DNA of 64,000 bases from Escherichia coli 042 (GTDB lineage Bacteria > Pseudomonadota > Gammaproteobacteria > Enterobacterales > Enterobacteriaceae). The notes beneath the pieces were generated by a model. The model was not told the DNA's origin, searched no databases, and saw only the letters and a program-made list of their open reading frames with translations. This document shows, piece after piece, positions 2,324 to 29,942 of this stretch (positions within the stretch are counted from its first letter, which is position 1; every line of letters starts with the position of its first letter). The stretch lies in the NCBI RefSeq assembly GCF_000027125.1, contig NC_017626.1; one strand, given 5' to 3'. The translations under genes and the position numbers were made by a program.

Positions 2324-3640
2324 ATGTCTGTAACACGTATAAGAGTGAAAGAGCGCGACGCTATCATTCAGTCACTTAAGTCGGGAGTAACGCCAAGAAT
2401 AGGTATTCAGCATATCCAGGTTGGCCGCGTGAATGAGATAACCGCCCTCCATCAGGATATTGAACGGATTGCTGATGGCGGGGCAAGCTTCAGACTTATC
2501 ATTGGTGAGTACGGTTCCGGGAAAACATTCTTTTTAAGTGTTGTACGGTCTATTGCGTTAGAGAAGAAGCTGGTCACGGTCAGTGCAGACCTTTCTCCCG
2601 ACAGACGTATCCACTCATCGGGAGGTCAGGCTCGTAATCTCTACTCAGAGCTTATGAAAAATATGTCCACCAGAAACAAACCAGATGGCAATGCATTACT
2701 TAGCGTTGTGGAAAGGTTTGTTACTGAGGCAAGGAAGGAAGCTGATGCGAACGGCTCCCTGGTCTCATCCGTTATTCATAAACGCCTTGCTGCTTTGTCA
2801 GATATGGTGGGAGGATATGACTTTGCGAAGGTCATTGACGCATTCTGGCGCGGGCATGAGCAGGATAACGAAACCTTAAAATCCAATGCTATTCGCTGGT
2901 TGCGGGGCGAGTACACCACAAAAACTGATGCCCGTAATGATCTTGACGTCCGAACGATTATCTCAGACGCCTCGTTCTATGATTCTTTGAAGTTGATGAG
3001 CCTTTTTGTCCGTCAGGCAGGCTATGCCGGACTTTTAGTTAGCCTCGACGAGATGGTGAACCTCTTCAAGTTGAATAATACGCAAGCGAGAACGGCCAAC
3101 TACGAACAAATTTTGCGGATTCTGAATGACTGCCTGCAAGGCTCCGCCGAAAATATTGGTTTTATCCTCGGGGGGACGCCAGAATTTCTTTTCGATCCAC
3201 GTAAGGGGCTCTACAGCTATGAAGCGCTCCAGTCGCGTCTGGCAGAAAACCGATTCGCACAGAAAGCTGGCGTGATTGACTACTCGTCCCCCACGCTGCA
3301 TCTTGCCAGCCTCACTCCTGAGGAACTGTATATTTTACTGAAAAACCTTCGTCATGTTTATGCTGGTGGAGATCCCGTAAATTATCTGGTGCCAGATGAT
3401 GCTCTGACCGGGTTTCTGCATCACTGCAGCAAAACCATCGGAGATGCTTACTTTCGAACTCCCCGCAATACCATAAAAGGTTTTCTGGATATGCTGGCTG
3501 TGCTGGAACAAAACAGAACGATGAACTGGCAACCCCTCATTGAGGGGGTGGCGATTGAAGAAGACAAGCTCAGCGATATGGATGATGCCATTGTGGAGGA
3601 AAGTGATGACGATGATGGCCTGGCGAATTTCAGATTATGA
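2324..3640 (+). CDS. P-loop NTPase (Walker A GEYGSGKT, Walker B-like LLVSLDEM); candidate SngB-like ATPase
   Basis: 438-aa ORF with clear Walker A motif; stop overlaps the downstream helicase start (ATGA overlap at 3637-3640), implying translational coupling. Confidence 0.6.
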   Translation: MSVTRIRVKERDAIIQSLKSGVTPRIGIQHIQVGRVNEITALHQDIERIADGGASFRLIIGEYGSGKTFFLSVVRSIALEKKLVTVSADLSPDRRIHSSGGQARNLYSELMKNMSTRNKPDGNALLSVVERFVTEARKEADANGSLVSSVIHKRLAALSDMVGGYDFAKVIDAFWRGHEQDNETLKSNAIRWLRGEYTTKTDARNDLDVRTIISDASFYDSLKLMSLFVRQAGYAGLLVSLDEMVNLFKLNNTQARTANYEQILRILNDCLQGSAENIGFILGGTPEFLFDPRKGLYSYEALQSRLAENRFAQKAGVIDYSSPTLHLASLTPEELYILLKNLRHVYAGGDPVNYLVPDDALTGFLHHCSKTIGDAYFRTPRNTIKGFLDMLAVLEQNRTMNWQPLIEGVAIEEDKLSDMDDAIVEESDDDDGLANFRL

Positions 3641-5835
3641 GTAGTGCCTACAATAGTCTTGATCCCCGTGTCCGTAAGTGGGTTTATAAGCAGGGCTGGT
3701 CATCCTTAAGGCCCTTGCAGGAAAGCTCTATTCCGGCAATTTTAGCCCGTGATCGTGATGTACTAATTAGTGCAGGTACAGCTGCGGGTAAAACAGAGGC
3801 TTTCTTTCTTCCTGCCTGTTCAGCGATTGCAGATCTCACTGGTGGATTTGGCATTATCTATATCAGTCCATTGAAGGCATTAATTAACGATCAACACCGT
3901 CGTCTTGAGAGTCTTGGTGAAGCCCTGGAAATGCAAGTGACGCCCTGGCACGGGGATGTACCACAAAGCAAAAAGAAGAAAGCACGGACAACCCCTTCTG
4001 GCATCTTACTTATCACACCTGAATCACTTGAGTCTTTGCTCATAAACTCATTGGGTTGGCTCAAACAGGCGTTTTCTTCTGTGGCATACATTGTTATTGA
4101 TGAGTTCCATGCTTTTATTGGCTCAGAGCGTGGTATACAGCTGCTTTCTCTGCTTAACAGAATTGACCATGTGCTGGGACGCCAGTTGAATCCAGTTCCC
4201 CGTGTCGCGTTGAGTGCCACACTGGGAGAGCTGGAAAAAGTACCAGAACTATTGCGCCCGGATAAGAGATTACCTTGTGAAACGGTAACAGACAGTAATA
4301 GCAAAGCCACAATACAGGTTCAGGTTAAAGGTTATCTTGAGCGGGTGCCCGAAAAAGGAAAAGAGCTCCAGAGCTCTGCTGAACAGCTCGTCTGCGCGGA
4401 TATTTTCAGGCTCTGCCGTGGCGATTCCCACCTAGTCTTTGCTAACAGTCGAAAGCGTACTGAAAGCATAGCGGCAACACTGAGCGACATGTGTGAAGCA
4501 AATGTCGTTCCTAATGAATTCTTTCCTCATCATGGTTCCCTTGCAAGGGAGTTGCGTGAGGCGCTTGAAGCCCGACTGCAGAAAGGGAATTTGCCCACAA
4601 CCGCTGTTTGTACAATGACTCTGGAGCTGGGTATTGATATTGGTAAGGTGCAGTCTGTCATACAAGTGACACCTCCGCATTCTGTTTCCAGTCTGCGTCA
4701 ACGCATGGGACGTTCAGGGCGGCGCGATTCCCCATCGGTGCTGAGAATGTTAATTACTGAACCTGAACTTACCGCAACCAGCAGCATTGTGGATCATTTA
4801 CGGCTGCAGTTGGTTCAGGCGATGGCAATGATCAGGTTGATGATCTCTAAGCGCTGGTTCGAGCCTGCAGATATCCGGCAGAAACATTACTCCACACTAC
4901 TACACCAGATCTTGGCTATTACTGCGCAATGGGGAGGTGTTCGTGCCGATCAGCTCTGGTCACAACTTTGCCAGACAGGTCCGTTCCGGAATGTGGATAT
5001 AAATGACTTCAAAAGTCTGCTTAAACATATGGGGACATGTGGCCTGCTCACTCAACTAACCAGCGGTGAAATAGTTGTCGGGGCTGAGGGGGAGAAACTG
5101 ACTAATCACTACACGTTTTATACCGTATTCAATACACCTGAGGAGTTTCGCATTGTAACGGGAAACCGAACTCTTGGCACAGTGCCTGTAGACTCCCCAC
5201 TTTTGCCGGAGCAGCACATCATCTTCGGCGGACGGCGCTGGAAAGTGACAGAGATCGAGGTTGAAAAAAAGGTTATCTATGTTGAGACGACTAAAGGCGG
5301 TCAGCCGCCACTATTCAGTGGTAGCGGGATGTCTGTTCATGATGTTGTTCGCCAGGAAATGCTCACTATCTACAGGGAAAATGATTACCGTATCGCGGTA
5401 GGCAACAAGAGAGTCGATTATGCTGATGCCGCAGCCAGAAGCCTCTTCGCGGAAGGAAGTGACAACTTCCAACGCTACAATCTACAAAATGACTGTTTTA
5501 TTGCCAGTGGTCAGAACTGCTACGTGATCCCGTGGATGGGGGATAAAATTGTCAATACAATTACGTCCCTGCTTATACGTTGTGGCTTTAAAGCCAGTTC
5601 ATTTGCAGGTGTGATAGAGGTAGAGGACTCAGGCGTTGCCTCTGTCCAGCGTGCACTTAAGAAAATGCTATTGTCGGGGCTACCTTCAGAGTTTGAGCTT
5701 GCTGCAGTTGTTCCCGACAAGTATCTGGATAAATATGACGAGTATTTACCAGAGACTTTGCTTGCTAAAGGGTATGGGGCACAGGCGTATGATATAGAAG
5801 GAACGTGCATCTGGCTGCAGAAACACCTTCAGTAG
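3637..5835 (+). CDS. DExH-box superfamily 2 helicase with ~300-aa C-terminal extension; candidate SngC-like helicase
   Basis: 732-aa ORF with Q-motif/motif I (SAGTAAGKTEAF), motif II (VIDEFHAF), motif III (LSATLG) and helicase-C motif (QRMGRSGR). Confidence 0.7.
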   Translation: MSSAYNSLDPRVRKWVYKQGWSSLRPLQESSIPAILARDRDVLISAGTAAGKTEAFFLPACSAIADLTGGFGIIYISPLKALINDQHRRLESLGEALEMQVTPWHGDVPQSKKKKARTTPSGILLITPESLESLLINSLGWLKQAFSSVAYIVIDEFHAFIGSERGIQLLSLLNRIDHVLGRQLNPVPRVALSATLGELEKVPELLRPDKRLPCETVTDSNSKATIQVQVKGYLERVPEKGKELQSSAEQLVCADIFRLCRGDSHLVFANSRKRTESIAATLSDMCEANVVPNEFFPHHGSLARELREALEARLQKGNLPTTAVCTMTLELGIDIGKVQSVIQVTPPHSVSSLRQRMGRSGRRDSPSVLRMLITEPELTATSSIVDHLRLQLVQAMAMIRLMISKRWFEPADIRQKHYSTLLHQILAITAQWGGVRADQLWSQLCQTGPFRNVDINDFKSLLKHMGTCGLLTQLTSGEIVVGAEGEKLTNHYTFYTVFNTPEEFRIVTGNRTLGTVPVDSPLLPEQHIIFGGRRWKVTEIEVEKKVIYVETTKGGQPPLFSGSGMSVHDVVRQEMLTIYRENDYRIAVGNKRVDYADAAARSLFAEGSDNFQRYNLQNDCFIASGQNCYVIPWMGDKIVNTITSLLIRCGFKASSFAGVIEVEDSGVASVQRALKKMLLSGLPSEFELAAVVPDKYLDKYDEYLPETLLAKGYGAQAYDIEGTCIWLQKHLQ

Positions 5836-5851
5836 ACTGGATATGTAGTCA

Positions 5852-5884
5852 GGGTATAAATAAGTATTTATACCCTTATTTTTT
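5852..5884. terminator. Rho-independent terminator between the convergent helicase gene and the minus-strand cassette
   Basis: Perfect 11-bp inverted repeat gggtataaata / tatttataccc with a 2-nt loop, followed by ttatttttt. Confidence 0.5.
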
Positions 5885-6206
5885 ACTTACCTGTGGACTT
5901 ACTTGGCTTTAATCCCGGAGTATTGCCAGGAGTATCTTTATTATCGCGTCGGCGTTGATCCGGTTTTCCTGTTGACTTAGCAATTGGTTTTGGACCTGGT
6001 TTTAGACCCATGATAGTTATCCTTCGAGATGTAAGAGGAATGCCCTCAACATTGGTATATTCTATACTGAGAAATTTTTCAATGGGAATGTTCAACGGCC
6101 GAATGATTAACTCGATATTGTGAGCAATGTCTTTTTTTGGCACAGAGCGAACCGTTAGATTGCGCGTATTTTTATGGAAGGAGATCATCCAATAACGGTT
6201 ATTCAC
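5883..6206 (-). CDS. Hypothetical ORF (low-complexity, Pro/Lys-rich C-terminus); possibly a gene remnant
   Basis: 107-aa ORF; 5' end region (MISFHKNT) carries one copy of a 25-bp repeat also found at 10940-10964; 3' end overlaps the terminator T-tract. Confidence 0.25.
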   Translation of the reverse strand: MNNRYWMISFHKNTRNLTVRSVPKKDIAHNIELIIRPLNIPIEKFLSIEYTNVEGIPLTSRRITIMGLKPGPKPIAKSTGKPDQRRRDNKDTPGNTPGLKPSKSTGK

Positions 6207-6270
6207 CGATCTCCTTTATGGTAATACGAACCTGTTTTTTTAATATATAGAAAAATTACTCCGACATGTT

Positions 6271-6915
6271 TTATCTTTTTGAAATCAGGACATTTACCAA
6301 CTCACTTAAAACTCTCTTTTGTTCTTCATCCTGAAGATATTGAATCCGGAATTTAATCTCTTCTGCAACCCGCCTTGTATCGGACTCATTAAGTATTTTT
6401 GTTATTCGCTGTCTCTGATGTTCAGGCTGGTCTTCCATATTTCGTAAAACCAGATGAAATAATATATCATAAAGTGCGCAATGCCATGAATAACCATCAT
6501 TGGTTAGAATAAGCTCCCAAACCCGCTCCTGTTCGGCAATAAGCTGCAGAACAAAGGATTCAACCTGTTCTGATTGTCCGGGGACAACCCGGTATAGCGG
6601 CGCAATCACAGCAAAAAACAGTTCATTTAGCCAGGATTCCGCCTCTTTCTCGCTCCTGAAAGATGGACAGTTCTGTATTCTTCGTTCGTATTCACGGGTA
6701 ACCTGCTCCGGAATATCCTCCGGCGGTGTCAGCCACTTATTCCTGAGCAATATACTGGTTGACGGATGGCAGCAGGCTATTTCAGCAATAATTTCACGTA
6801 ATGCCTCCGGGCTGAATTTCTTCAGCTGATTGTAGTGCTCCCGGGTAAAACCATGATCATCGCATAAAAGTTGCCATGTCATTGATATACTGTTTGCCAT
6901 TCCTTTCTTCATCAT
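6271..6915 (-). CDS. Hypothetical protein, last gene of the ibrAB-containing cassette
   Basis: 214-aa ORF co-directional with and 20 bp downstream of the PerC-like ORF; no family recognised by eye. Confidence 0.45.
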   Translation of the reverse strand: MMKKGMANSISMTWQLLCDDHGFTREHYNQLKKFSPEALREIIAEIACCHPSTSILLRNKWLTPPEDIPEQVTREYERRIQNCPSFRSEKEAESWLNELFFAVIAPLYRVVPGQSEQVESFVLQLIAEQERVWELILTNDGYSWHCALYDILFHLVLRNMEDQPEHQRQRITKILNESDTRRVAEEIKFRIQYLQDEEQKRVLSELVNVLISKR

Positions 6916-6935
6916 TAATACCTGTTACCTGAATA

Positions 6936-7244
6936 TCAACAGACCGGTGTACCTTTTCTGAATACCTCCCCGGACGGACTGGCAATCCCCATTCGCCTCA
7001 GCGTGGCATCTGCAGCTTTCGCCACTTCGCTGATATCCAGCTTTTCAGGTAGCGGCGGGGACGATATCTGCGCCAGGCAATAATTCCTGCGCAACAACAA
7101 CCACTCCCGTTGTGCTTCTGTACATTCAACATTTCCCATAACAAAAAGCCAGCGGGCGGAAGCTCTGCGCCAGCAACCCGCAGCCTCCAGCTTCTGTGCA
7201 ACCATGTCTTCCACGACTTCCGGGGTACTCTTTTTCCTGCTCAA
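6936..7244 (-). CDS. Small PerC-like putative transcriptional regulator
   Basis: 102-aa ORF; segment LEAAGCWRRASARWLFVM resembles the PerC/Pch family core as recalled. 40 bp downstream of the ibrB-like gene. Confidence 0.4.
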   Translation of the reverse strand: MSRKKSTPEVVEDMVAQKLEAAGCWRRASARWLFVMGNVECTEAQREWLLLRRNYCLAQISSPPLPEKLDISEVAKAADATLRRMGIASPSGEVFRKGTPVC

Positions 7245-7283
7245 AACATTAACTCACTGAAATAATATACATATATGACGGTC

Positions 7284-7922
7284 TCAGCGAACCGTCCATG
7301 CCGGACTGAAATCCTCTTCCAGAAACAGCTCCGTCAGCCCGCTAATCTGTTTCAACCTGAGAACTTCATCCTGGTCCATACCCAGCTCCGTACCAATACG
7401 TTCATCCGTCCAGCCCAGCCGCGACAGGTCCCTGACAATATCAGACATTGAAGTTATCTGGTGCTTCCCCCTGGCCCGGTTATGTCTAATGGTTGCAGCA
7501 ATACGTGAGGCCTGTCCCTTTCTTTCCGGATTAATACAGGTCACTGGCAACCAGCCCTTCAGGCGTTTTCCCGTACCTGCTTCCCTGCCCAGTAATTGAC
7601 GATGAAAACCATCCACGACCAGATAATGCTCCTTCTCTTCCGAGACAACCACAGGCTGCGTGAACCCATCCTGCTCCAGTGAATGTTTCAGCAGTTTCTT
7701 CTCACCCGGCGCCATGACATTGGGGTTATAATCGTTGGCCACCACCTCATCTGCTTTCACCCACAGCACACAGTCCACAGGCTCCTGTGCAAATGGACTG
7801 ACCTCATGAAGCACCCTGCGCAGATGATTCAGGGCCTGTATGGCCTCTTCTTCTGGTCGTTCCTGGCTGAAGTACTGACGAATCATGTTGCTCAGTATCT
7901 CCGGTGTCACAGAATCCCCCAT
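7284..7922 (-). CDS. ibrB: ParB/Srx-fold (ParB-like nuclease domain) protein, IbrB-like
   Basis: 212-aa ORF with a ParB-like core (YLVVDGFHRQ); start overlaps the upstream ibrA-like stop by 16 bp. Confidence 0.7.
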   Translation of the reverse strand: MGDSVTPEILSNMIRQYFSQERPEEEAIQALNHLRRVLHEVSPFAQEPVDCVLWVKADEVVANDYNPNVMAPGEKKLLKHSLEQDGFTQPVVVSEEKEHYLVVDGFHRQLLGREAGTGKRLKGWLPVTCINPERKGQASRIAATIRHNRARGKHQITSMSDIVRDLSRLGWTDERIGTELGMDQDEVLRLKQISGLTELFLEEDFSPAWTVR

Positions 7923-9139
7923 TCCTTCCTCCTTTCTTTCATACGCTGCAGATAACGTTCATAGTGCCGGGGTTTGTTCGGACTGAAGGAGAGGGTACGG
8001 CACCAGAAATCATTCTTTATGAGAGTCTTACAGATACGTCGCCAGGACGGAATATCCCGGCTCCCCAAGTCATTCTCCTGTTCATCCGGGATGTCATCCG
8101 GGAAGCCCCGCGTCTGATACCAGCGCAGATAGACAGCTATCTTGTTGCGGTAATGTTCTGCCGTTCTTTCCGGCATCACATCCAGCAGAAACATCGCATA
8201 GCTGCGCCAGGTATGATGGGCTGGTTTTGATATGCGCTTACGCAGGGCAAAATAAGCCCCGCTTTCATTGGCATAAAGTGCCCCGCTGGCAGCCCCTGAC
8301 ACCCGCTCACACATCCTGGCCCAGGTTTCCGGCTCCAGAACATGGTAAAGCCACAGTCCCTTACGTTGTTCAGGACCAAAAGGTTCACAGACACGCATGT
8401 TGCGTAACGGTACGCCGGCACGGTACATCAGGTCATACAGGGGATTGTAGATGGCACGGGTTCTGGTGTGATATATCCAGATATCACGAGTTTTCCAGTC
8501 ATACAGCGGATACATGGTGTAGTAAAACCCTTCAGGCGATGCCGTGGTCCAGGGCTTATCATCGGCGTATCTCAGTTTGCGCTGGGATACCAGTCCCATG
8601 AACCGGTTAAGGGACTCATCCGCACGGACACCGGTCAGTACTGCCACACCACATTTATTGTCTGCAAACCAGGAAGAAAATGCCGGAACAAATTCTTCAA
8701 ACGTCATGGCATACCGGTAAAAGGGAAAATACGCCATATCTGTAATGGCCCCCTCCGGTGGCTGGCGAACCCACTTCACACCAGACTCCCAGCATATCCA
8801 CTCCGGCTGAAACTGAGAAACACCGTTTACCGTGGTCAGGGGAAGTGCCACCCAGTAAAAGGTTTCCGTCACATCATGGTACATTTCCCGCATCTTCTGA
8901 ATATGTTCAATGGTGCACTGGTACTGAGCCTCCCAGTCAATGAACAGTACAGAGAAACGACGTTTTTTCCTGCGGGCCACATCAGCCAAAAGATGGAAAA
9001 GCACGGTGGAATCTTTACCACCGGAAAAAGAGAGACAAACTGATGGAAATGTTTCAAAAATCCACTCAATACGAGCAATTGCTGCACGCAGAACATTCTC
9101 TCCAGTAAGGACTTTCTCCGTTAAAAAATTATCATTCAT
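7907..9139 (-). CDS. ibrA: PAPS reductase-family PP-loop ATP-pyrophosphatase-like protein, IbrA-like
   Basis: 410-aa ORF with PP-loop motif SFSGGKDST near the N-terminus; size and pairing with a ParB-like gene match the ibrA/ibrB pair. Confidence 0.75.
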   Translation of the reverse strand: MNDNFLTEKVLTGENVLRAAIARIEWIFETFPSVCLSFSGGKDSTVLFHLLADVARRKKRRFSVLFIDWEAQYQCTIEHIQKMREMYHDVTETFYWVALPLTTVNGVSQFQPEWICWESGVKWVRQPPEGAITDMAYFPFYRYAMTFEEFVPAFSSWFADNKCGVAVLTGVRADESLNRFMGLVSQRKLRYADDKPWTTASPEGFYYTMYPLYDWKTRDIWIYHTRTRAIYNPLYDLMYRAGVPLRNMRVCEPFGPEQRKGLWLYHVLEPETWARMCERVSGAASGALYANESGAYFALRKRISKPAHHTWRSYAMFLLDVMPERTAEHYRNKIAVYLRWYQTRGFPDDIPDEQENDLGSRDIPSWRRICKTLIKNDFWCRTLSFSPNKPRHYERYLQRMKERRKEWGIL

Positions 9140-21992: not shown

Positions 21993-22445
21993 CTACGTTT
22001 TATGCAGCCGCTCAGGGATGTATGTCACAATTTTCTTTCGCCTGCTTAACCATCGTACTTCTCCTTCCCCCCATGGCTGAAGCTGTATGAGATAGTCAAT
22101 AACTTTTCGACCAAAGCCTGGTTTACAACAGAAATCCAGGATCCAGATCCTTCCATCTTCATTCCATTCAGACGGATGCAACCTGAATTCTGGATCCCTG
22201 AGCAGGCGCGCTTCCGTATCAGCCTCAAGATATGCCCAGGTTATATACGCCAGTGGAAAACCTCGTGAATCAAACAGGAATTTAATCTGATTATGCTGTA
22301 TCGCATATTCAGTCCAGTATTGAATGGTTAACACCGGATACAGACTGTAATTACGATTGTAGAGCATACAACTGACCGCAAAACCTATCTGTTCATAAAC
22401 AGTCCATTCATCTTTTCCTCTGATGGTTTCCCTTATATAAGACAT
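21993..22445 (-). CDS. mchD: HlyC-like acyltransferase-family protein (microcin maturation, MchD/MceI-like)
   Basis: 150-aa ORF at the position and size expected for mchD in the mchCDEF operon. Confidence 0.65.
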   Translation of the reverse strand: MSYIRETIRGKDEWTVYEQIGFAVSCMLYNRNYSLYPVLTIQYWTEYAIQHNQIKFLFDSRGFPLAYITWAYLEADTEARLLRDPEFRLHPSEWNEDGRIWILDFCCKPGFGRKVIDYLIQLQPWGEGEVRWLSRRKKIVTYIPERLHKT

Positions 22446-22470: not shown

Positions 22471-24021
22471 TTACACTGTGTTTCTTATCGGTTCAAGATA
22501 TCCAAATGCATCTCTGGAAAACTTAAGCATAAAATTTTTCATATCAGAAATTGCTTCTTGTAAAAAAAGGGGATCATCGCCATGATTATCCAGCAGGATG
22601 GCAATTTTTTCGCACATATTCTCTTTCCTCAGCTCTTCCCTGGGTTGCAGCCTTTTCATGGTATGATGTTCAATTTCTTTCAGGAGTAATGAAGCATTTA
22701 TCTGACGTCTGGTACTGCCTTGCGTCAGCCAGTGGATAGTCTGGGAAAAACACTGTTGTGCAACGGTGAAATAAACATCATTCTTGATGCTACTATTCAG
22801 TGCCTGCTTTTGATTATGCCTATGATGGATTAGCGTCACAACCAACTTTTGCAATGGTGAACCATCCTGATTGACAATATCTTGGGCATGTGATTTCTCG
22901 CAGTATTTATTGAGTAATGCAACAAAACTGTTAACCAGTTGTTTCAATATATCAGGTATCTCTTTTTGTGTTATAAATTCTCCAGGAATACCCAACAGTT
23001 CTAGATAACAGTAATAACATGCTTCATGAAAAGTTTTCTGAAATATCTCCTCAACCTTCAAACGGGCTGCAAGAGTGAAGTCAGGGTCAAACATATATTT
23101 TCCGATATACAAGCAGAGATCAGACAGCCCTTGCATAAGTACCATCGGTTCTTTTGCCAGTTCAGCTAATCTTAGTTTATACCCAAAATCAGCTGGGGAA
23201 TCTCCCGGAAACAGACAACTGAGTCCGTTAAAATCCATTAATCTGCCATCCATTGCAATATTAGAAGGAGAAGTTGTCAATCTCAGGAAACGTGTTCGAC
23301 AAAATGCCATTTGCCAGGCCTCACGACGTGCCAGTTCACATAATCCCTCAATGCAATAAATCCGGGGATCAGTTCGTGCTTCAGCATCAATTTCTTCCGG
23401 TGGTACAGGTAGATATCCTGGCAGCTTGTGGATCACAGATCTAACCCGACAGGCATCGTGAATTAACTGACTGGAATACTCCGGTTTTACTTGGAAGTAT
23501 GGTGCCCGTTCAAAATGCGCCGGGCGAACAACAGGCTCACGTACCAACAGGGCTCTTCGTGATTTCATACCGGAGCGCTCAAATGCCTTTTCAGTATAGA
23601 GATCTGTAAGTAAAACCGCCCGAACCCGCACAGCACTATAAGGTAATATTTGAGCCAGTACTTCTCCCCACAAAGCCTCATATATTGCATGAACAGCGCC
23701 GAGTGCACCATTAGAATGACGTTCGTCAGTACCTTCACCAACCAACGGATTACTTCCTATTCCTTTAACCTGGTAGTTACCATCAAACCCACAACGTGCA
23801 CCACCTCCATTACGCTGAATACCACTGCCACCATAGCGCTCTGCATGGAACACTTTGGCAGAAGCCGTACTGTCAGGATCGATAATATAACTGCAGGCAT
23901 TTTGCAGCTCGCCTGGATTTCTGACATCCTCTGCACACCAGATTAATGAGGACTTGATCTGCCTGGCAGTGAAAGGCACCAGGTTTTCATTCAGTTCAGA
24001 AAGTGAACACTGATGACTCAT
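22471..24021 (-). CDS. mchC: Microcin maturation protein (MchC/MceJ-like)
   Basis: 516-aa ORF immediately upstream of mchD, matching the mchC size and position. Confidence 0.65.
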   Translation of the reverse strand: MSHQCSLSELNENLVPFTARQIKSSLIWCAEDVRNPGELQNACSYIIDPDSTASAKVFHAERYGGSGIQRNGGGARCGFDGNYQVKGIGSNPLVGEGTDERHSNGALGAVHAIYEALWGEVLAQILPYSAVRVRAVLLTDLYTEKAFERSGMKSRRALLVREPVVRPAHFERAPYFQVKPEYSSQLIHDACRVRSVIHKLPGYLPVPPEEIDAEARTDPRIYCIEGLCELARREAWQMAFCRTRFLRLTTSPSNIAMDGRLMDFNGLSCLFPGDSPADFGYKLRLAELAKEPMVLMQGLSDLCLYIGKYMFDPDFTLAARLKVEEIFQKTFHEACYYCYLELLGIPGEFITQKEIPDILKQLVNSFVALLNKYCEKSHAQDIVNQDGSPLQKLVVTLIHHRHNQKQALNSSIKNDVYFTVAQQCFSQTIHWLTQGSTRRQINASLLLKEIEHHTMKRLQPREELRKENMCEKIAILLDNHGDDPLFLQEAISDMKNFMLKFSRDAFGYLEPIRNTV

Positions 24022-24291: not shown

Positions 24292-24519
24292 TTAGCTACC
24301 GCCACCAGCAGAAGAACTGGCACTACCACTTCCCACGGTCGAGCCAATTGCTGTTGTCAAACCGGCAGATACGGCTCCAACTACAACCCCAAGTGGACCA
24401 CCAGGTATTCCGGCGAGAGCTCCAACAATAGCTGCAGCACCTGCGGCATTAGCTGAAGTCGCTGGCGCACCTCCCGCCCCGGAAATATATCTTAACTGTG
24501 ATTCTGTTATTTCTCGCAT
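24292..24519 (-). CDS. mchB: Microcin H47 precursor
   Basis: 75-aa product from internal ATG: MREITESQLRYISGAGG leader then Gly/Ala-rich core ending SGSASSSAGGGS, matching MccH47 as recalled. Confidence 0.85.
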   Translation of the reverse strand: MREITESQLRYISGAGGAPATSANAAGAAAIVGALAGIPGGPLGVVVGAVSAGLTTAIGSTVGSGSASSSAGGGS

Positions 24520-24535
24520 ATAAACTCCATCATAT

Positions 24536-24745
24536 TTAACTTCCGTTTTTCCAGCCTGACCAGACCAGAATCTTTCGAATCCCATGAATCAGCTCAATAA
24601 AACCAAGAAATATTATAAAGCTTAGAAAAACGTCAACATAAGAATTCCCTTCGCCAACAATCCGAAGGGATGAAAGTGAAACCAATAAGATAGTAAGAGG
24701 TAAACTAAATATAGCCGTCAATTGGTACAGTTTTTTATAACTCAT
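24536..24745 (-). CDS. mchI: Microcin H47 immunity protein (small two-TM membrane protein)
   Basis: 69-aa hydrophobic ORF 16 bp upstream of mchB; size matches MchI. Confidence 0.75.
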   Translation of the reverse strand: MSYKKLYQLTAIFSLPLTILLVSLSSLRIVGEGNSYVDVFLSFIIFLGFIELIHGIRKILVWSGWKNGS

Positions 24746-25156
24746 TAATACCTACCTGTTGCTTTATTTTCATTATGAAAAGTTACCAAATCTTAGCGCT
24801 TCAGTCAGGGGAGTCAGGTCATCGATAAAGAATATTCCAGTAGAGTGGCGCTCATGATCAAAGACAACAGCAAAGTTGATGACAGTGCTGACCGACTGTC
24901 ATTTACAGTAACCCTGTTTGTAGCAAATTCCATCTTACCAGACCTCACCCAGACAAAGACAAAAGAGAATGATTGTTATTTACTTTTCAAAAAAAGTGTC
25001 ATATTGTCCATATAAAGTCAAGAGGTATTTTACGTTATGTAACTGATGCAATTGTTAGTCAGGATCTCATGGTTGTCGCTCATGTATAACCTGAGACTTG
25101 AACGTACACTAATAGCACTGACGGTCATACATCGGGAAATGTGAGGAGGCATAAGA

Positions 25157-25402
25157 ATGAATTGTGATAATAATCACAGAAATGAAGAATTCATTGTTAC
25201 CTTTGATAAAGGCAACAAGCAAGACAATTCAAGACGAAAACACGATAATTTTCCTATAGAGGTAGAATCCTCCGTAGAGCTGGAGACACACTGTATCACA
25301 AATAATAAGTCGGCTTCCGGTATAGTAACACATGACTATGATGCCGATTATATTTGTGGTTGTGGTGAAATTATGTGTCCTGGTTGCGGTCATGACCTAT
25401 AA
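25157..25402 (+). CDS. Small Cys-rich hypothetical protein (C-terminal CGCGEIMCPGCGH motif); possibly the mchS4 equivalent
   Basis: 81-aa ORF with strong RBS (gaggagg 7 nt upstream of ATG); C-terminal CxC-x4-CPxC motif suggests metal binding. Confidence 0.35.
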   Translation: MNCDNNHRNEEFIVTFDKGNKQDNSRRKHDNFPIEVESSVELETHCITNNKSASGIVTHDYDADYICGCGEIMCPGCGHDL

Positions 25403-25556
25403 CAAACATATTTGCAAACTGATACCTGATCAGGTACAAGCCTGTTGATTATTATGCTGAATATTCCAGTTATCAATCCATCGATATGAACATTAACAAG
25501 AAAAAACATATATTGTTTATCTGAATATTTATCGATGGAAAACCAAAGGGGAAAGT

Positions 25557-25991
25557 ATGTATCTTACGAAAAAGATTATAATAAGTATGATGTTTATATT
25601 ACCATCTGCTGCATTTTCATCAGATCCACCTCCCCTTCAACAATCGTTAGAAAAAACAACCTATTTTTCTATAGGTATGAATGGGTTTATAGGCTATCAG
25701 AGCGAAGGGGAAAAATTATACACACACATTCTTACATTAGATAATCCCGAAGAGATATTTAAAAATATAATAAAAAATAGAAAGTCAACTAAGGAGTCTA
25801 AAATTTATGCTGCTTGTGGGCTATATTATTTAAACGTAGAAAATATAGAGTCATTGTTTAATGAAAATGATAAACAAGAATATGTGTCTGTCTTAAGAGG
25901 GGATATTTTAACAAAAATAAAACTGAATGATATTCTGAATTCTGTGATAATAAATGGTTGCAACACCAAATTAATATCTGAACATAAATGA
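25557..25991 (+). CDS. Signal-peptide protein immediately upstream of microcin I47; possibly its immunity/accessory protein (MchS3-like)
   Basis: 144-aa AT-rich ORF with N-terminal hydrophobic signal; ends 17 bp before the microcin I47 precursor gene. Confidence 0.35.
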   Translation: MYLTKKIIISMMFILPSAAFSSDPPPLQQSLEKTTYFSIGMNGFIGYQSEGEKLYTHILTLDNPEEIFKNIIKNRKSTKESKIYAACGLYYLNVENIESLFNENDKQEYVSVLRGDILTKIKLNDILNSVIINGCNTKLISEHK

Positions 25992-26007: not shown

Positions 26008-26241
26008 ATGAGAGAAATATCAGATAACATGCTTGATTCCGTGAAAGGAGGGATGAATCTTAATGGATTACCTGCTTCTACTAATGTAATAGATCTACGT
26101 GGAAAAGATATGGGAACATATATTGATGCTAATGGAGCATGCTGGGCTCCGGATACTCCATCCATCATCATGTATCCGGGGGGAAGTGGACCTTCTTATA
26201 GTATGAGTAGTTCCACATCCAGTGCAAACAGCGGCAGTTAA
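26008..26241 (+). CDS. mchS2: Microcin I47 precursor (double-glycine leader, Ser-rich C-terminus)
   Basis: 77-aa ORF: leader MREISDNMLDSVKGG, C-terminus SMSSSTSSANSGS typical of siderophore-microcins. Confidence 0.7.
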   Translation: MREISDNMLDSVKGGMNLNGLPASTNVIDLRGKDMGTYIDANGACWAPDTPSIIMYPGGSGPSYSMSSSTSSANSGS

Positions 26242-26529
26242 ATAAATACCATCCGGCTATGCCGGAGGGTATTTATGATGTGCCTGTAAGACTCTACTTC
26301 TGTCGTCTCTTTACAAAGGCATATGATCTGACATTTTGTACCAGACATCTTAACGAGAGCCTTTTCATATATTACTTACATACGTGAAATCTACAGTATA
26401 AAGCAAAAATTTTATTAAACCTGTTTTATATTTATCATCAATACAACAGATTTAATTCCGGAAAGTCACTCATCACCCCTTGAATGAACGTCATTTGATG
26501 TATTATTCTTACACTTGGATTAATTTAAG

Positions 26530-27804
26530 ATGATACCTATGAAAAACTATCTTTTCCAGACTCCCGAAGATATTTGTGTACAGTTAAAAAAAATGACACA
26601 TCCTGTCACAATAAGAACAACAGATATTGCTAATTTCTGGCACTATCTTGAGTCAGCAACTCTTCCGGTGATCACAAAAAGCACCACTACAGAAAATCGG
26701 GAGGTTACATTTCTGTGGCGCTCAGAGAAAGCAGTGCAAGGCGTATATCTTCGCCTGAATCGTGTTACAGATAAAAAAGATGTCAAAAAAGGACTAATGA
26801 CTCATATCCCTTCGACAGATATCTGGATGCTGACACTGGTGTTACCAGCTTCATATCGGGGCTCATACTCATTTATAGAAATTCCCACAGATATGACACA
26901 AAAAGACATATTTCAACTAGGAAGTCGCTTCTCTCCATTACCCGGTAAATCTGATCCATTTAACAAAACAGCAGAAATAAATATACGAGGATTCGGAGAA
27001 TCAGTCCTTTCTCTTGATATGGCTCCTGAACAAAAGGAATGGGATGATACTTCCCATAAATGTACAGGTATTCTTTCAACATTACATTCCTTTGTTGCAG
27101 GATATCAACGCCGGATTCGTTTATATTTTCCCCAGAATCCAACATCAGTACCTCTTGGATTACTTGTGTTACCTGATGCTGAAATATGGTTTGACCGGAT
27201 GGATATTACCCGGGCATTAGATATGGCCATTACCACTGGTCATATTGCGCCAATGGCAATTATGGGGATAGACAATATTAATGAATCTGATCGTATGAAT
27301 ATACTGGGAGGCAATAAAGAACTTATCTTTGATATAGCGGAAAATCTGATACCCCAGTTATACAGAGACTACCCGAATATCGTATGGGCTGGTCGTTCTA
27401 ATACTATACTGGCCGGTCAGAGCCTCGGTGGAGTGACAGCACTGATGGCAGCTATATATGCGTCGACAACATTTGGTACAATCATTAGCCACTCACCTTC
27501 AATGTGGTGGAACCCTGACCAGGGCAGCCCGATTTTGTTTACTGAGAATGATATCTCCTGGGTAAGTGAGCAGATACTTTCAGCGCCTCCGAAAGATGTA
27601 AATATCCAACTTGGAGTCGGTTCTTTAGAAGGTACAACCGTCTCACATGTTCAGCGGTTGCATCAGTCGTTAATCGCAGCAGGTTTGGAAAGTAACCTCA
27701 CTGTCTATGCCGGTGGTCATGATTATGCCTGGTGGCGCGGAGCAATTATTGATGCATTAGCAAATTATAATTGCAGGAAGATATCAGATAATAACTTTGT
27801 GTAA
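26530..27804 (+). CDS. mchS1: Enterochelin esterase-like hydrolase (IroD/MceD-like) for siderophore-microcin maturation
   Basis: 424-aa ORF with esterase nucleophile motif (LAGQSLGG) in an alpha/beta-hydrolase-like C-terminal half. Confidence 0.7.
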   Translation: MIPMKNYLFQTPEDICVQLKKMTHPVTIRTTDIANFWHYLESATLPVITKSTTTENREVTFLWRSEKAVQGVYLRLNRVTDKKDVKKGLMTHIPSTDIWMLTLVLPASYRGSYSFIEIPTDMTQKDIFQLGSRFSPLPGKSDPFNKTAEINIRGFGESVLSLDMAPEQKEWDDTSHKCTGILSTLHSFVAGYQRRIRLYFPQNPTSVPLGLLVLPDAEIWFDRMDITRALDMAITTGHIAPMAIMGIDNINESDRMNILGGNKELIFDIAENLIPQLYRDYPNIVWAGRSNTILAGQSLGGVTALMAAIYASTTFGTIISHSPSMWWNPDQGSPILFTENDISWVSEQILSAPPKDVNIQLGVGSLEGTTVSHVQRLHQSLIAAGLESNLTVYAGGHDYAWWRGAIIDALANYNCRKISDNNFV

Positions 27805-27952: not shown

Positions 27953-29071
27953 TTATTTCCCGTTGTTTTTTAATTTTCTCATCAAAACCTCTGCGATCTC
28001 TGCAGGACTGGGTTGTTCAGCCATTTCAGCGGCTACCTGATCTGAACAGAAGCGTAGTGAATCATCATAAAGCAGGCGATTTACCAAATCACTGGTCAGT
28101 CCATGCTTGTCCGGAATAATCCCACACCCACGCATCGCAACAATTTCTGCATTAACAGAGCGATCTGCACCTTCGCCAAACACAATCTGTGGTATCCCAC
28201 TATACAACGCTGTCAGGGTATTACCTGCGCCACCATGATGAATAAATCCATCAGCTCCATTAAGGAATACACCCATAGGTATCCAGTCAACCAGACGTAC
28301 ATTTGATGGTAGTTTTCGTAATCCAGTACGAGCATTTATTGCAAGTTGCAAAATGATATCAGCATCAACTTCATTTGCAGAATCCATAACCCATGAAATC
28401 AGCTCCAGACCATCAACCATTGGTTTTACAGTGCCAAGGCTGATGAGTAAACGTTTTCGATCAGAATCCCTGTCCCACCATGTTTCCTTTACAGCACCTC
28501 CGTTATAAGGAATATATCTCATTGAGATAACCGGTTCTTCAGCATTTTTAAGAATGCTCATACTTGGGGGAGCAACATCAATCCATGCTAAATCACATAG
28601 TGGACCGCTGACTCCATGCCGCCTGTAAGCATTGCTTAAAGAACGGTTTAACATCTGAATATGGGCAGATGTATGCGCGAATCCAACAGCCAGCATCACT
28701 GAAGGAATTCTATATTTAGCAGCAACCAATGGGCCTGCCGGACCAAGCGGGGGATAGACTATTAAATCTGGCCTCCATTTTCCTGCAAAATCGATGAGGT
28801 TATCTGCCATTTCATCGCTAAAAAAAGAGAAATGACCAATAATATTACTTTTTTTCCTCAACTCTTCCTGATGGCGATATCCAGCCTCTGAATCTAAACT
28901 TGGAACTGCATCAAAAACAACCAGTCCAGCTTCTGCTGCTTTATTCGCGAATTTGCCAGCACTACTAATTACTACATCATGTCCGATTACACGAAAGGCC
29001 TGAGCCAGAGAAATCAATGGGTATAACAAACCGTACAGCGGTGGGCCAATAAAAAGAATACGTTTTCGCAT
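27953..29071 (-). CDS. mchA: Family 1 glycosyltransferase (IroB/MceC-like) for siderophore-microcin modification
   Basis: 372-aa ORF with MGT-type N-terminus (RILFIGPPLYGLLYP) and C-terminal donor-binding region (HHGGAGNT). Confidence 0.75.
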   Translation of the reverse strand: MRKRILFIGPPLYGLLYPLISLAQAFRVIGHDVVISSAGKFANKAAEAGLVVFDAVPSLDSEAGYRHQEELRKKSNIIGHFSFFSDEMADNLIDFAGKWRPDLIVYPPLGPAGPLVAAKYRIPSVMLAVGFAHTSAHIQMLNRSLSNAYRRHGVSGPLCDLAWIDVAPPSMSILKNAEEPVISMRYIPYNGGAVKETWWDRDSDRKRLLISLGTVKPMVDGLELISWVMDSANEVDADIILQLAINARTGLRKLPSNVRLVDWIPMGVFLNGADGFIHHGGAGNTLTALYSGIPQIVFGEGADRSVNAEIVAMRGCGIIPDKHGLTSDLVNRLLYDDSLRFCSDQVAAEMAEQPSPAEIAEVLMRKLKNNGK

Positions 29072-29512: not shown

Positions 29513-29705
29513 GTGTAATGCCAGTTATAAACAATGTGAATGGAATGACGAATCAGTCAGGAAAGAGCTACAACCTGCTGGCTGACCGGAGAGGGTCAGC
29601 AGGAAAATGAACGGTAATGTCGCCAGCACCAGGGACAGGGCTGATTTCCGCAATACCAGCGCCGGCATTTTGCACATTGCCAGCGTACCGGCATCACAAC
29701 ACGTT

Positions 29706-29942
29706 TCATGCTGCTGCTCCTCGTGATTCCTCAATTCGCTGCTGCATCCACTGCTCCACTTCACTTTTGTACCAGCGGCTGCTGCGGCCCAGCTTGATGG
29801 GTTTCGGGAAATGGCCTTCACTGATCAGCTTGTAAAACCATTTATCTGTCATACCGGTGAAACTGGTGATGTAGTTCATGTCGATCAGGGGATCGTCGGC
29901 ACGCAGCAACACGCAGTCGTGGCCTGTCATTGAGGTCAACAT
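29706..29942 (-). CDS. alpA: AlpA-family prophage regulatory / excisionase-like protein
   Basis: 78-aa ORF; C-terminal region (GHFPKPIKLGRSSRWYKSEVEQW) matches the AlpA family pattern. Confidence 0.7.
   Translation of the reverse strand: MLTSMTGHDCVLLRADDPLIDMNYITSFTGMTDKWFYKLISEGHFPKPIKLGRSSRWYKSEVEQWMQQRIEESRGAAA

Follow-up and report, generated by a model that had tools for sequence, protein, structure and literature searches.

The mchS4 and mchS3 genes of the microcin H47/I47 island of Escherichia coli 042: a conserved cysteine-rich tail in MchS4 and an atypical, putatively exported immunity protein

Gene identities in the microcin H47/I47 island

The DNA analysed here is a window of 64,000 nucleotides of Escherichia coli 042 (NC_017626.1, assembly GCF_000027125.1; all coordinates count from the start of the window), and the subject of this report is two adjacent genes within it, mchS4 and mchS3. 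The list of open reading frames (ORFs) and the annotation of matching chromosomes by the Prokaryotic Genome Annotation Pipeline (PGAP) identified the genes of the region as those of the E. coli microcin H47/I47 genomic island (Table 1). Exact-sequence look-up matched the 81-residue protein over all 81 residues to UniProt Q712P8 ('MchS4 protein'), the 144-residue protein over all 144 residues to Q712P9 (MchS3), and the 77-residue peptide to Q712Q0 ('MchS2 protein'), the precursor of microcin I47 (MccI47); a sequence mismatch to mchS3 and mchS4 of AJ009631 was excluded. Both genes are already known and are the founding members of their named families, and it is nearly certain that the two positions hold mchS4 and mchS3 with their published roles. 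A preliminary description of this DNA had placed the two ORFs and the I47 precursor that follows them correctly, and had called both genes uncharacterised; the comparison with mchS3 and mchS4 that it proposed returned identity, a result that it had itself named as decisive against that label. As the two genes were named and assigned roles about twenty years ago, finding them adds nothing new in itself.

Over a 2.2-kb stretch of the region, several complete E. coli chromosomes on which PGAP annotates mchS3, mchB and mchI match the window at 100% identity. Some match to it was found in 293 of 5426 complete E. coli genomes, and most of the stretch is kept in only 164. In the RefSeq/PGAP annotation, mchX (24814-24948) was unannotated in every genome inspected, mchS4 was omitted in most genomes and the MccI47 precursor in some. 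Since annotation pipelines still skip mchS4 and mchX, and often the precursor of MccI47 as well, these genes are under-reported when microcin islands are surveyed automatically. In strain GPEC709 (L007:3854-4090, plus strand), PGAP calls a 78-residue hypothetical protein opposite mchX, which is enabled by a 1-bp insertion and is probably a mis-call replacing mchX.

Table 1. Features of the mchS4-mchS3 region and adjoining island genes in E. coli 042 (window coordinates)
Feature	Position	Strand	Description	Basis
mchD	21993-22445	-		ORF list, PGAP
mchC	22471-24021	-		ORF list, PGAP
mchB + mchI	24292-24745	-	MchI, 69 aa, mostly hydrophobic	ORF list, PGAP
mchX	24814-24933	-	Upstream small ORF in the mchX-mchI-mchB operon; 39 aa counted from ATG	ORF list
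Fur-box-like site	24965-24983	-	GAGAATGATTGTTATTTAC; 14/19 to consensus; mchX-mchS4 intergenic	Motif scan
mchS4	25157-25402	+	81 aa, ATG start	ORF list; exact match to Q712P8
mchS4 tail codons	25349-25399	+	Conserved C-terminal tail (Cys67, Cys69, Cys74, Cys77, His79); proposed metal site	Alignment, codon comparison
Hairpin after mchS4	25431-25444	+	Weak, terminator-like	Consensus scan
Promoter-like sequence	25487-25514	+	TGAACA-16-TATATT, upstream of mchS3	Consensus match only
mchS3 (= mciI)	25557-25991	+	144 aa, ATG start	ORF list; exact match to Q712P9
MchS3 signal peptide	residues 1 to ~21		Sec-type (predicted); the rest a soluble helical domain with invariant Cys87, Cys135	Hydrophobicity, family alignment
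mchS2 (= mciA)	26008-26241	+	MccI47 precursor, 77 aa	Exact match to Q712Q0
Hairpin after mchS2	26252-26266	+	Terminator-like, closing the mchS3-mchS2 unit	Consensus scan
mchS1	26530-27804	+	Esterase	ORF list, PGAP
mchA	27953-29071	-	Glycosyltransferase	ORF list, PGAP

MchS4 and its conserved C-terminal tail

MchS4 is an acidic (pI 4.8), hydrophilic protein without a signal peptide and without any hydrophobic or transmembrane segment. Its gene is preceded by the Shine-Dalgarno sequence GAGGAGG at 25143-25149 (plus strand), 7 nt before the ATG, and AGGAG is kept at the same distance in the homologues described below; AAGGGG lies about 5 nt upstream of the mchS3 ATG and AGGAGG upstream of the ATG of the I47 precursor, so that the good ribosome-binding sites reported earlier for the two genes were borne out. 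The CxC-x4-CPxC motif that had been noticed in the 81-residue protein is also real, the protein ending in YICGCGEIMCPGCGHDL.

The mchS4 region is present in 291 of the 5426 complete E. coli genomes, and about 128 of the complete genomes have kept mchS4 and lost the I47 genes mchS3 and mchS2. In islands of the ATCC 25922 and KC-Dl-1 type (L005, L006:4754-5903), an IS3-family element stands in place of mchS3, mchS2, mchS1 and mchA, mchS4 being kept along with 47 codons from the start of mchS3. This retention of mchS4 where the IS3 element has replaced mchS3 and mchS2 indicates that mchS4 belongs with the mchX-mchC maturation module and not with I47.

Relatives of MchS4 were found by position. 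In Klebsiella oxytoca an ORF of 86 residues, divergent from an mchX-like ORF, ends in SEYICGCGCACCCGCGHDF. A scan of a genome collection with MchC as bait yielded four more class IIb microcin clusters, in Cedecea, Tenebrionibacter, Yokenella and Hafnia, and returned no K. pneumoniae. The ORFs at the mchS4 position end in EYVCGCGCDCCCGCGHDL in Cedecea, EYVCGCGCDCCCGCGHDF in Tenebrionibacter and NYICGCGCESCSGCGHDL in Hafnia; MchS4-like ORFs divergent from mchX and beside mchC were thus seen in the window and in loci L012, L015, L016 and L018. The mchS4-like gene of Tenebrionibacter (L016:925-1245, minus strand) carries an in-frame stop where Cedecea has Gln, and is a recent pseudogene or reflects a sequencing error. 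Alignment across the five genera showed that only the last 17 residues are conserved, as Y[IV]CGCG[CE]xxCxGCGHD[LF] followed by the stop, the N-terminal parts of about 60 to 95 residues being unalignable. Among the 11 invariant residues of this tail, 9 have codons that vary synonymously and none is replaced, which indicates selection on the protein and not on the DNA. Within E. coli, the 246 nt of mchS4 contain 2 substitutions, compared with 21 in the 565 nt of flanking sequence (Fisher p = 0.02).

A degenerate DNA pattern for the tail, run against metagenomes, retrieved 34 contigs, comprising 31 MchS4-like ORFs, two FK506-binding-type (FKBP) prolyl isomerases of the SlyD type and one spurious hit. 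Nearly all of the 31 ORFs have mchX and/or mchC beside them, 28 having mchX as detected by tblastn; of the other three, two lie on contigs that end first and one (L037) stands beside a K. oxytoca-type mchX that did not score. The C-terminus of the MchX-like ORFs beside MchS4-like ORFs is itself conserved, as LIMSATLLEYSLSM[TF]. MchS4 is therefore no orphan: unannotated relatives, recognised by position and defined by the 17-residue Cys-rich tail alone, occur in at least four genera besides that of E. coli. One paper describes a further likeness: it has MchS4 acting 'through an unknown mechanism' and likens it to the C-terminus of MceE of the microcin E492 cluster of Klebsiella pneumoniae, MceE's C-terminal part sharing identity with MchS4; mceE, small and monocistronic, lies divergently to mceX, and the intergenic region that the two share binds Fur (PMC6071977).

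The preliminary description had suggested that one of the two genes was probably the I47 immunity or accessory factor. Immunity holds for MchS3/MciI (PMC9542533, PMC11634061) and an accessory role for MchS4, but the latter is not tied to I47, because mchS4 persists in the E. coli genomes without mchS3 and mchS2 and because it stands divergent from mchX/mchC in other genera with or without I47-type genes.

Several results weigh against this account of MchS4. An exhaustive HMMER search of 1.84 billion representative proteins detected no homologue outside E. coli; the pairwise BLASTP comparison of the E. coli and K. oxytoca proteins (E = 4.6) is not significant alone, and homology for that reason rests on synteny together with the terminal motif; the AlphaFold2 model of MchS4 from its single sequence was uninformative, with a predicted local distance difference test score (pLDDT) of 34; and no MchS4-like ORF was present in the class IIb clusters examined from Yokenella and, borne on plasmids, from Salmonella and Pantoea. 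From this last absence it follows that MchS4 is dispensable for the pathway and an optional accessory. Other searches were likewise negative: a word-indexed protein search returned E. coli variants only, tblastn against plasmids gave no match, a profile built from five MchS4-like proteins matched no PDB sequence, and there was no Pfam or NCBIfam match, Pfam at E <= 1 giving just two unrelated entries below threshold. The single outside match of the HMMER search, P0065, was rejected as an out-of-frame translation of a tandem repeat.

It could accordingly be asked whether the 81-residue ORF is a chance ORF in a regulatory spacer and no gene, as its omission by PGAP from most genomes and the lack of a Pfam or NCBIfam match and of HMMER homologues might be taken to indicate. 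Against this stand the strong Shine-Dalgarno sequence at the proper distance from the ATG, the intact ORF in 291 genomes with a substitution density below that of its flanks, the ORFs of similar size with the same position and the same terminal motif in four other genera, in which the invariant residues vary synonymously only, and a phenotype experimentally assigned to mchS4 (PMC10380612, PMC6071977). The chance-ORF explanation is effectively refuted by this evidence and retains only the slightest probability; MchS4 is a real small, acidic, cytoplasmic protein with a strictly conserved C-terminal Cys4-His tail.

The tail itself finds its closest parallel in the two SlyD-type proteins recovered by the DNA pattern (L020 and L048), whose identity was established by matches to Pfam FKBP_C and to SlyD in the PDB. 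Their Cys/His-rich C-terminal tails contain CGCGCDDCEGCGHD, and the pattern of these tails, CGCGC[DE]DCEGCGHD, matches that of the MchS4 family, CGCG[CE]xxCxGCGHD. The C-terminal domain of SlyD binds nickel (PMC11198818), and nothing else points as strongly as this shared motif to coordination of a metal by the MchS4 tail; a metal-binding tail, with iron or zinc as the metal, is on this comparison somewhat favoured. MchS4 differs from SlyD in having no FKBP or chaperone domain (no Pfam FKBP_C match), a tail of about 15 residues as against about 50, and no His runs, and the resemblance may be one of convergent coordination chemistry. Membership of MchS4 in a SlyD-type metallochaperone family was rejected for want of an FKBP domain match, and the idea that it is an MbtH-like activator of the enterobactin non-ribosomal peptide synthetase (YbdZ type) was rejected because the Pfam scan at E <= 1 gave no MbtH match.

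A variable N-terminus followed by an invariant Cys/Gly-rich 17-mer is also what might be expected of the leader and core of a precursor of a ribosomally synthesised and post-translationally modified peptide (RiPP), for example a thiazole- or thiolate-containing metallophore, and MchS4 has many Gly-Cys dipeptides, as do azole-forming precursors, the precursors of microcin B17 and methanobactin being examples. This explanation appears very unlikely. The annotated island neighbourhoods and the Pfam families of the K. oxytoca island include no enzyme of the cyclodehydratase/YcaO, radical-SAM or MbnBC type, and the island genes are all assigned to mcm/mch export, maturation, immunity or toxin. MchS4 has no double-glycine leader for the MchEF exporter, and it is the leader that is usually the conserved part in RiPPs, unlike the case here. 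Moreover, the near-identical motif occurs inside the two SlyD tails, which belong to a known nickel-binding domain (PMC11198818).

Two observations concern neighbouring genes. MchC (516 aa), which is required for siderophore attachment to the microcin, contains a highly conserved ERYGGSGIQRNGGGARCGF...VKGIG block; no Pfam family matched MchC, and the Pfam scan lent no support to the idea that it is SelO-like. A small Cys-rich ORF (…WQCAKCRRWYCGNQPCPWCW…) lies at 29596-29730 (minus strand), just below an AlpA-like excisionase-type gene at 29706-29942, and occurs also in L001 and L002.

MchS3 and immunity to microcin I47

MchS3 scored 139.3 bits against the NCBIfam profile NF041432 ('MchS3 family'; cut-off 100), residues 31-135 covering profile positions 1-105 of 105. 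Besides being identical to the founding protein of this family, it is encoded directly upstream of an MccI47-type precursor, mchS2 beginning 16 nt past the mchS3 stop. The published literature used mciI as the MccI47 immunity gene, leaderless mciA/MccI47 being lethal when mciI is omitted (PMC9542533), and describes Ro I47I and Ro I47A as a homologous immunity-toxin pair in Raoultella (PMC11634061). MchS3 is this published MccI47 self-immunity protein, co-transcribed with mchS2/mciA.

The start of MchS3, MYLTKKIIISMMFILPSAAFSS, is its sole hydrophobic segment, with a maximum in a 15-residue Kyte-Doolittle window of 2.05 at residues 7-21 and every other window at or below 1.6, in agreement with the signal peptide proposed in the preliminary description. 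A profile search with alignment collected about 22 full-length relatives, which are 31-55% identical to the E. coli protein. In all of them the N-terminal hydrophobic segment closes with small residues, for example AYS, AHA or AYA, a pattern expected for cleavage by signal peptidase. The blocks FSxGxNGFxG, STxEAKLYAACGL, LxGDIL and HGC are common to the 22 members, and C87 and C135 are invariant. MchS3 as a lipoprotein was rejected, since the E. coli protein has no Cys at the end of the signal peptide and the Cys found there in some homologues is not conserved. The AlphaFold2 model obtained with the family alignment had a mean pLDDT of 84, and about 96 in the core, and consists of five helices and a beta-hairpin. 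This confident model is like the N-terminal domain of Prp38, of the eukaryotic spliceosomal B-complex, yet sequence identity is 7-15% and the context unrelated, and the modelled likeness is almost certainly a resemblance of fold and not family membership.

In this architecture MchS3 departs from the usual immunity proteins. The typical class II microcin immunity peptides, such as MchI (69 aa), are likewise encoded next to the toxin gene in one operon and give toxin-specific protection, but they are small integral membrane peptides, whereas MchS3 has 144 residues, only one hydrophobic segment, at the N-terminus, and beyond it a helical domain that is soluble. McmI and MceB are further small class II immunity peptides. 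Neither MchS3, with its one N-terminal hydrophobic window, nor MchS4, with none, has the build of those peptides, which are integral to the membrane, about 50-100 aa long and equipped with at least two transmembrane helices, as had been remarked before. The immunity proteins for colicin M (Cmi) and pesticin (Pim) are soluble or anchored periplasmic proteins, and the toxins concerned are enzymes with periplasmic substrates. No similarity of sequence or fold between Cmi or Pim and MchS3 was detected, and the analogy is functional, that of an exported immunity protein acting on the periplasmic side.

An MchS3-like gene followed 20-40 nt on by an I47-like double-glycine peptide was also found in four further loci (L004, L009, L028 and L049), a gene context that supports cognate immunity. 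The MchS3-like protein of L004 is 47% identical to that of E. coli; in L028 the MchS3 and MchS2 identities are 56% and 74%, and in L049 they are 36% and 50%. Across the four loci the identities of the MchS3-like proteins and the I47-like toxins drop in parallel. The pair in L009 (5001-5724; MchS3-like protein at 33% identity) has an I47-like double-glycine peptide without the Ser-rich siderophore-attachment tail, and its neighbours (3624-8751) encode HlyD, a JmjC/cupin protein and a C39-ABC exporter; judged by gene content, it appears to encode an I47-type bacteriocin that carries no siderophore, together with an immunity protein of the MchS3 kind. In Klebsiella oxytoca CP033844 (L008:4968-5600, corresponding to L012 14283-14900), an orphan MchS3-like gene adjoins a frameshifted I47-like pseudogene, the H47-like cluster being otherwise intact.

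With regard to mechanism, MchS3 would be exported by way of its Sec signal peptide, would fold in the periplasm as a helical-repeat domain of about 120 residues with a Cys87-Cys135 disulfide, and would protect the cell by binding MccI47, or by masking its target or the way to it, at the periplasmic face of the inner membrane. Such action would resemble that of soluble periplasmic immunity proteins and not that of the small multi-transmembrane peptides. We regard periplasmic binding as an evenly balanced proposition, which the lethality of cytoplasmic leaderless MccI47 (PMC9542533) makes awkward in its purely interceptive form, and the variant in which a target is shielded stays alive for that reason. 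Alternatively, MchS3 might act at the inner membrane by occupying or modifying the cellular target of MccI47 or the route of its uptake, and might stay anchored there by an uncleaved signal sequence. That leaderless MccI47 kills from the cytoplasm unless mciI is present (PMC9542533) suggests that the target is in the membrane and can be reached from either side, the hydrophobic N-terminus might serve as a signal anchor and was treated as a predicted transmembrane domain in a published screen in eLife (PMC11634061), and a helical-repeat fold such as that of the model is a general protein-binding scaffold. The small residues at -3/-1 after the hydrophobic segment throughout the family are, on the other hand, typical of cleavage, and the parallel divergence of MchS3 and the I47-type toxins fits direct recognition, where a host target would be conserved; occupation or modification of a target is, on balance, the less probable of these possibilities though a serious one. 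No published target of MccI47 was found in the literature, and a soluble, apparently periplasmic MchS3 is a hint that the periplasmic face is where MccI47 acts or is intercepted. Since MccI47 is under development as a payload of live biotherapeutics against carbapenem-resistant Klebsiella (PMC9542533), there is some practical value in knowing how its immunity works.

Fur-box-like sites and the possible link of MchS4 to iron regulation

A strict search for Fur boxes (at most 3 mismatches) found none in the window, looser matches only being present. In the mchX-mchS4 intergenic region, two matches of at least 13/19 were observed against 0.12 in dinucleotide shuffles; the best of them (Table 1) adjoins mchX, whose ORF begins in the ORF listing at the GTG at 24948 and not at the ATG, and is about 170 nt away from the start of mchS4; closer to mchS4 the highest score is 12/19. 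This site and the likely mchX promoter (reverse-strand TTGACT) fall within a block of about 60 bp (24960-25030) that is conserved in E. coli, K. oxytoca, Cedecea, Hafnia and a metagenome contig; the half of the spacer nearer to mchS4 shows no such conservation. Weak Fur-box-like hexamers also cluster at 25447-25600, around the mchS3 start and the promoter-like sequence upstream of it: in 25403-25600, 12 matches of at least 12/19 were observed against 1.7 in shuffles, and none of 500 shuffles reached 12. This cluster is consistent with the detection of MccI47 only under iron deprivation (PMC3191183). In K. pneumoniae the orthologous mceE/mceX region has two Fur boxes and binds Fur in vivo, mceE being reported as monocistronic, and fragments of about 240 bp with the mceE and mceX promoters on pACYC184 derepressed a Fur reporter in a Fur titration assay (PMC6071977). 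The conserved Fur-box-like site together with the binding of Fur at mceE/mceX supports control of mchS4 by Fur.

The gene mchS4 is reported to cause enterobactin overproduction (PMC10380612, PMC6071977), and the following course of events is proposed. The gene is monocistronic and divergent from mchX, with which it shares an intergenic region that carries the Fur-box-like site. Under iron starvation its product would strengthen the derepression of the Fur regulon, whether through competition for the Fe(II) co-repressor or through direct action on Fur, so that the producer would make enough enterobactin to modify its microcins. Protein antagonists of this kind have precedents: YdiV together with SlyD antagonises Fur in E. 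coli (PMC7515728), and FurA/YlaN of B. subtilis and PacT of P. aeruginosa are presented as Fur antagonists in the titles of the papers on them. These are induced under iron limitation and relieve Fur repression, which is the action proposed for MchS4, although MchS4 has no sequence similarity to YdiV, YlaN or PacT-type antagonists. Action of MchS4 through Fur is put forward tentatively, as a possibility and not as the expected outcome. The wider proposal, that MchS4 and its relatives form a Fur-controlled family of small metal-binding proteins of siderophore-microcin islands, which antagonise iron sensing through the Cys4-His tail and by positive feedback force enterobactin overproduction, is more speculative still.

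The overproduction might alternatively be an effect of DNA, in which the mchX-mchS4 intergenic region in multiple copies titrates Fur and derepresses the ent genes, the MchS4 protein having another role, or none, in enterobactin supply. The titration obtained with the mceE and mceX promoter fragments (PMC6071977) speaks for this, the 14/19 match belongs to the block shared by five genera and to a set of matches more numerous than in shuffles, and the microcin H47 system was studied on recombinant plasmids (PMC3191183). The tail of MchS4, being under selection at the protein level across genera, nevertheless indicates that the protein does something; the literature credits the mchS4 gene and not the region (PMC10380612, PMC6071977); and the best Fur-box match stands next to mchX and at a distance from mchS4, near which only the 12/19 match is found. 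Titration by the intergenic DNA is on this evidence rather unlikely, though a live alternative. Taken as a whole, the two-gene explanation, with MchS3 as the immunity protein and MchS4 as the enterobactin factor, together with their mechanisms, is considered likely.

The lasting value of these results lies in the unannotated family defined by the MchS4-like tail, in its resemblance to the tail of SlyD and in the confident Prp38-like model of an atypical immunity protein. The conserved tail of MchS4 offers a concrete handle on how a microcin island raises enterobactin synthesis. Should the proposed antagonism of iron sensing prove true, a mobile element would rewire the iron regulation of its host with a protein of about 80 residues, and would thereby secure the enterobactin that arms its toxins.

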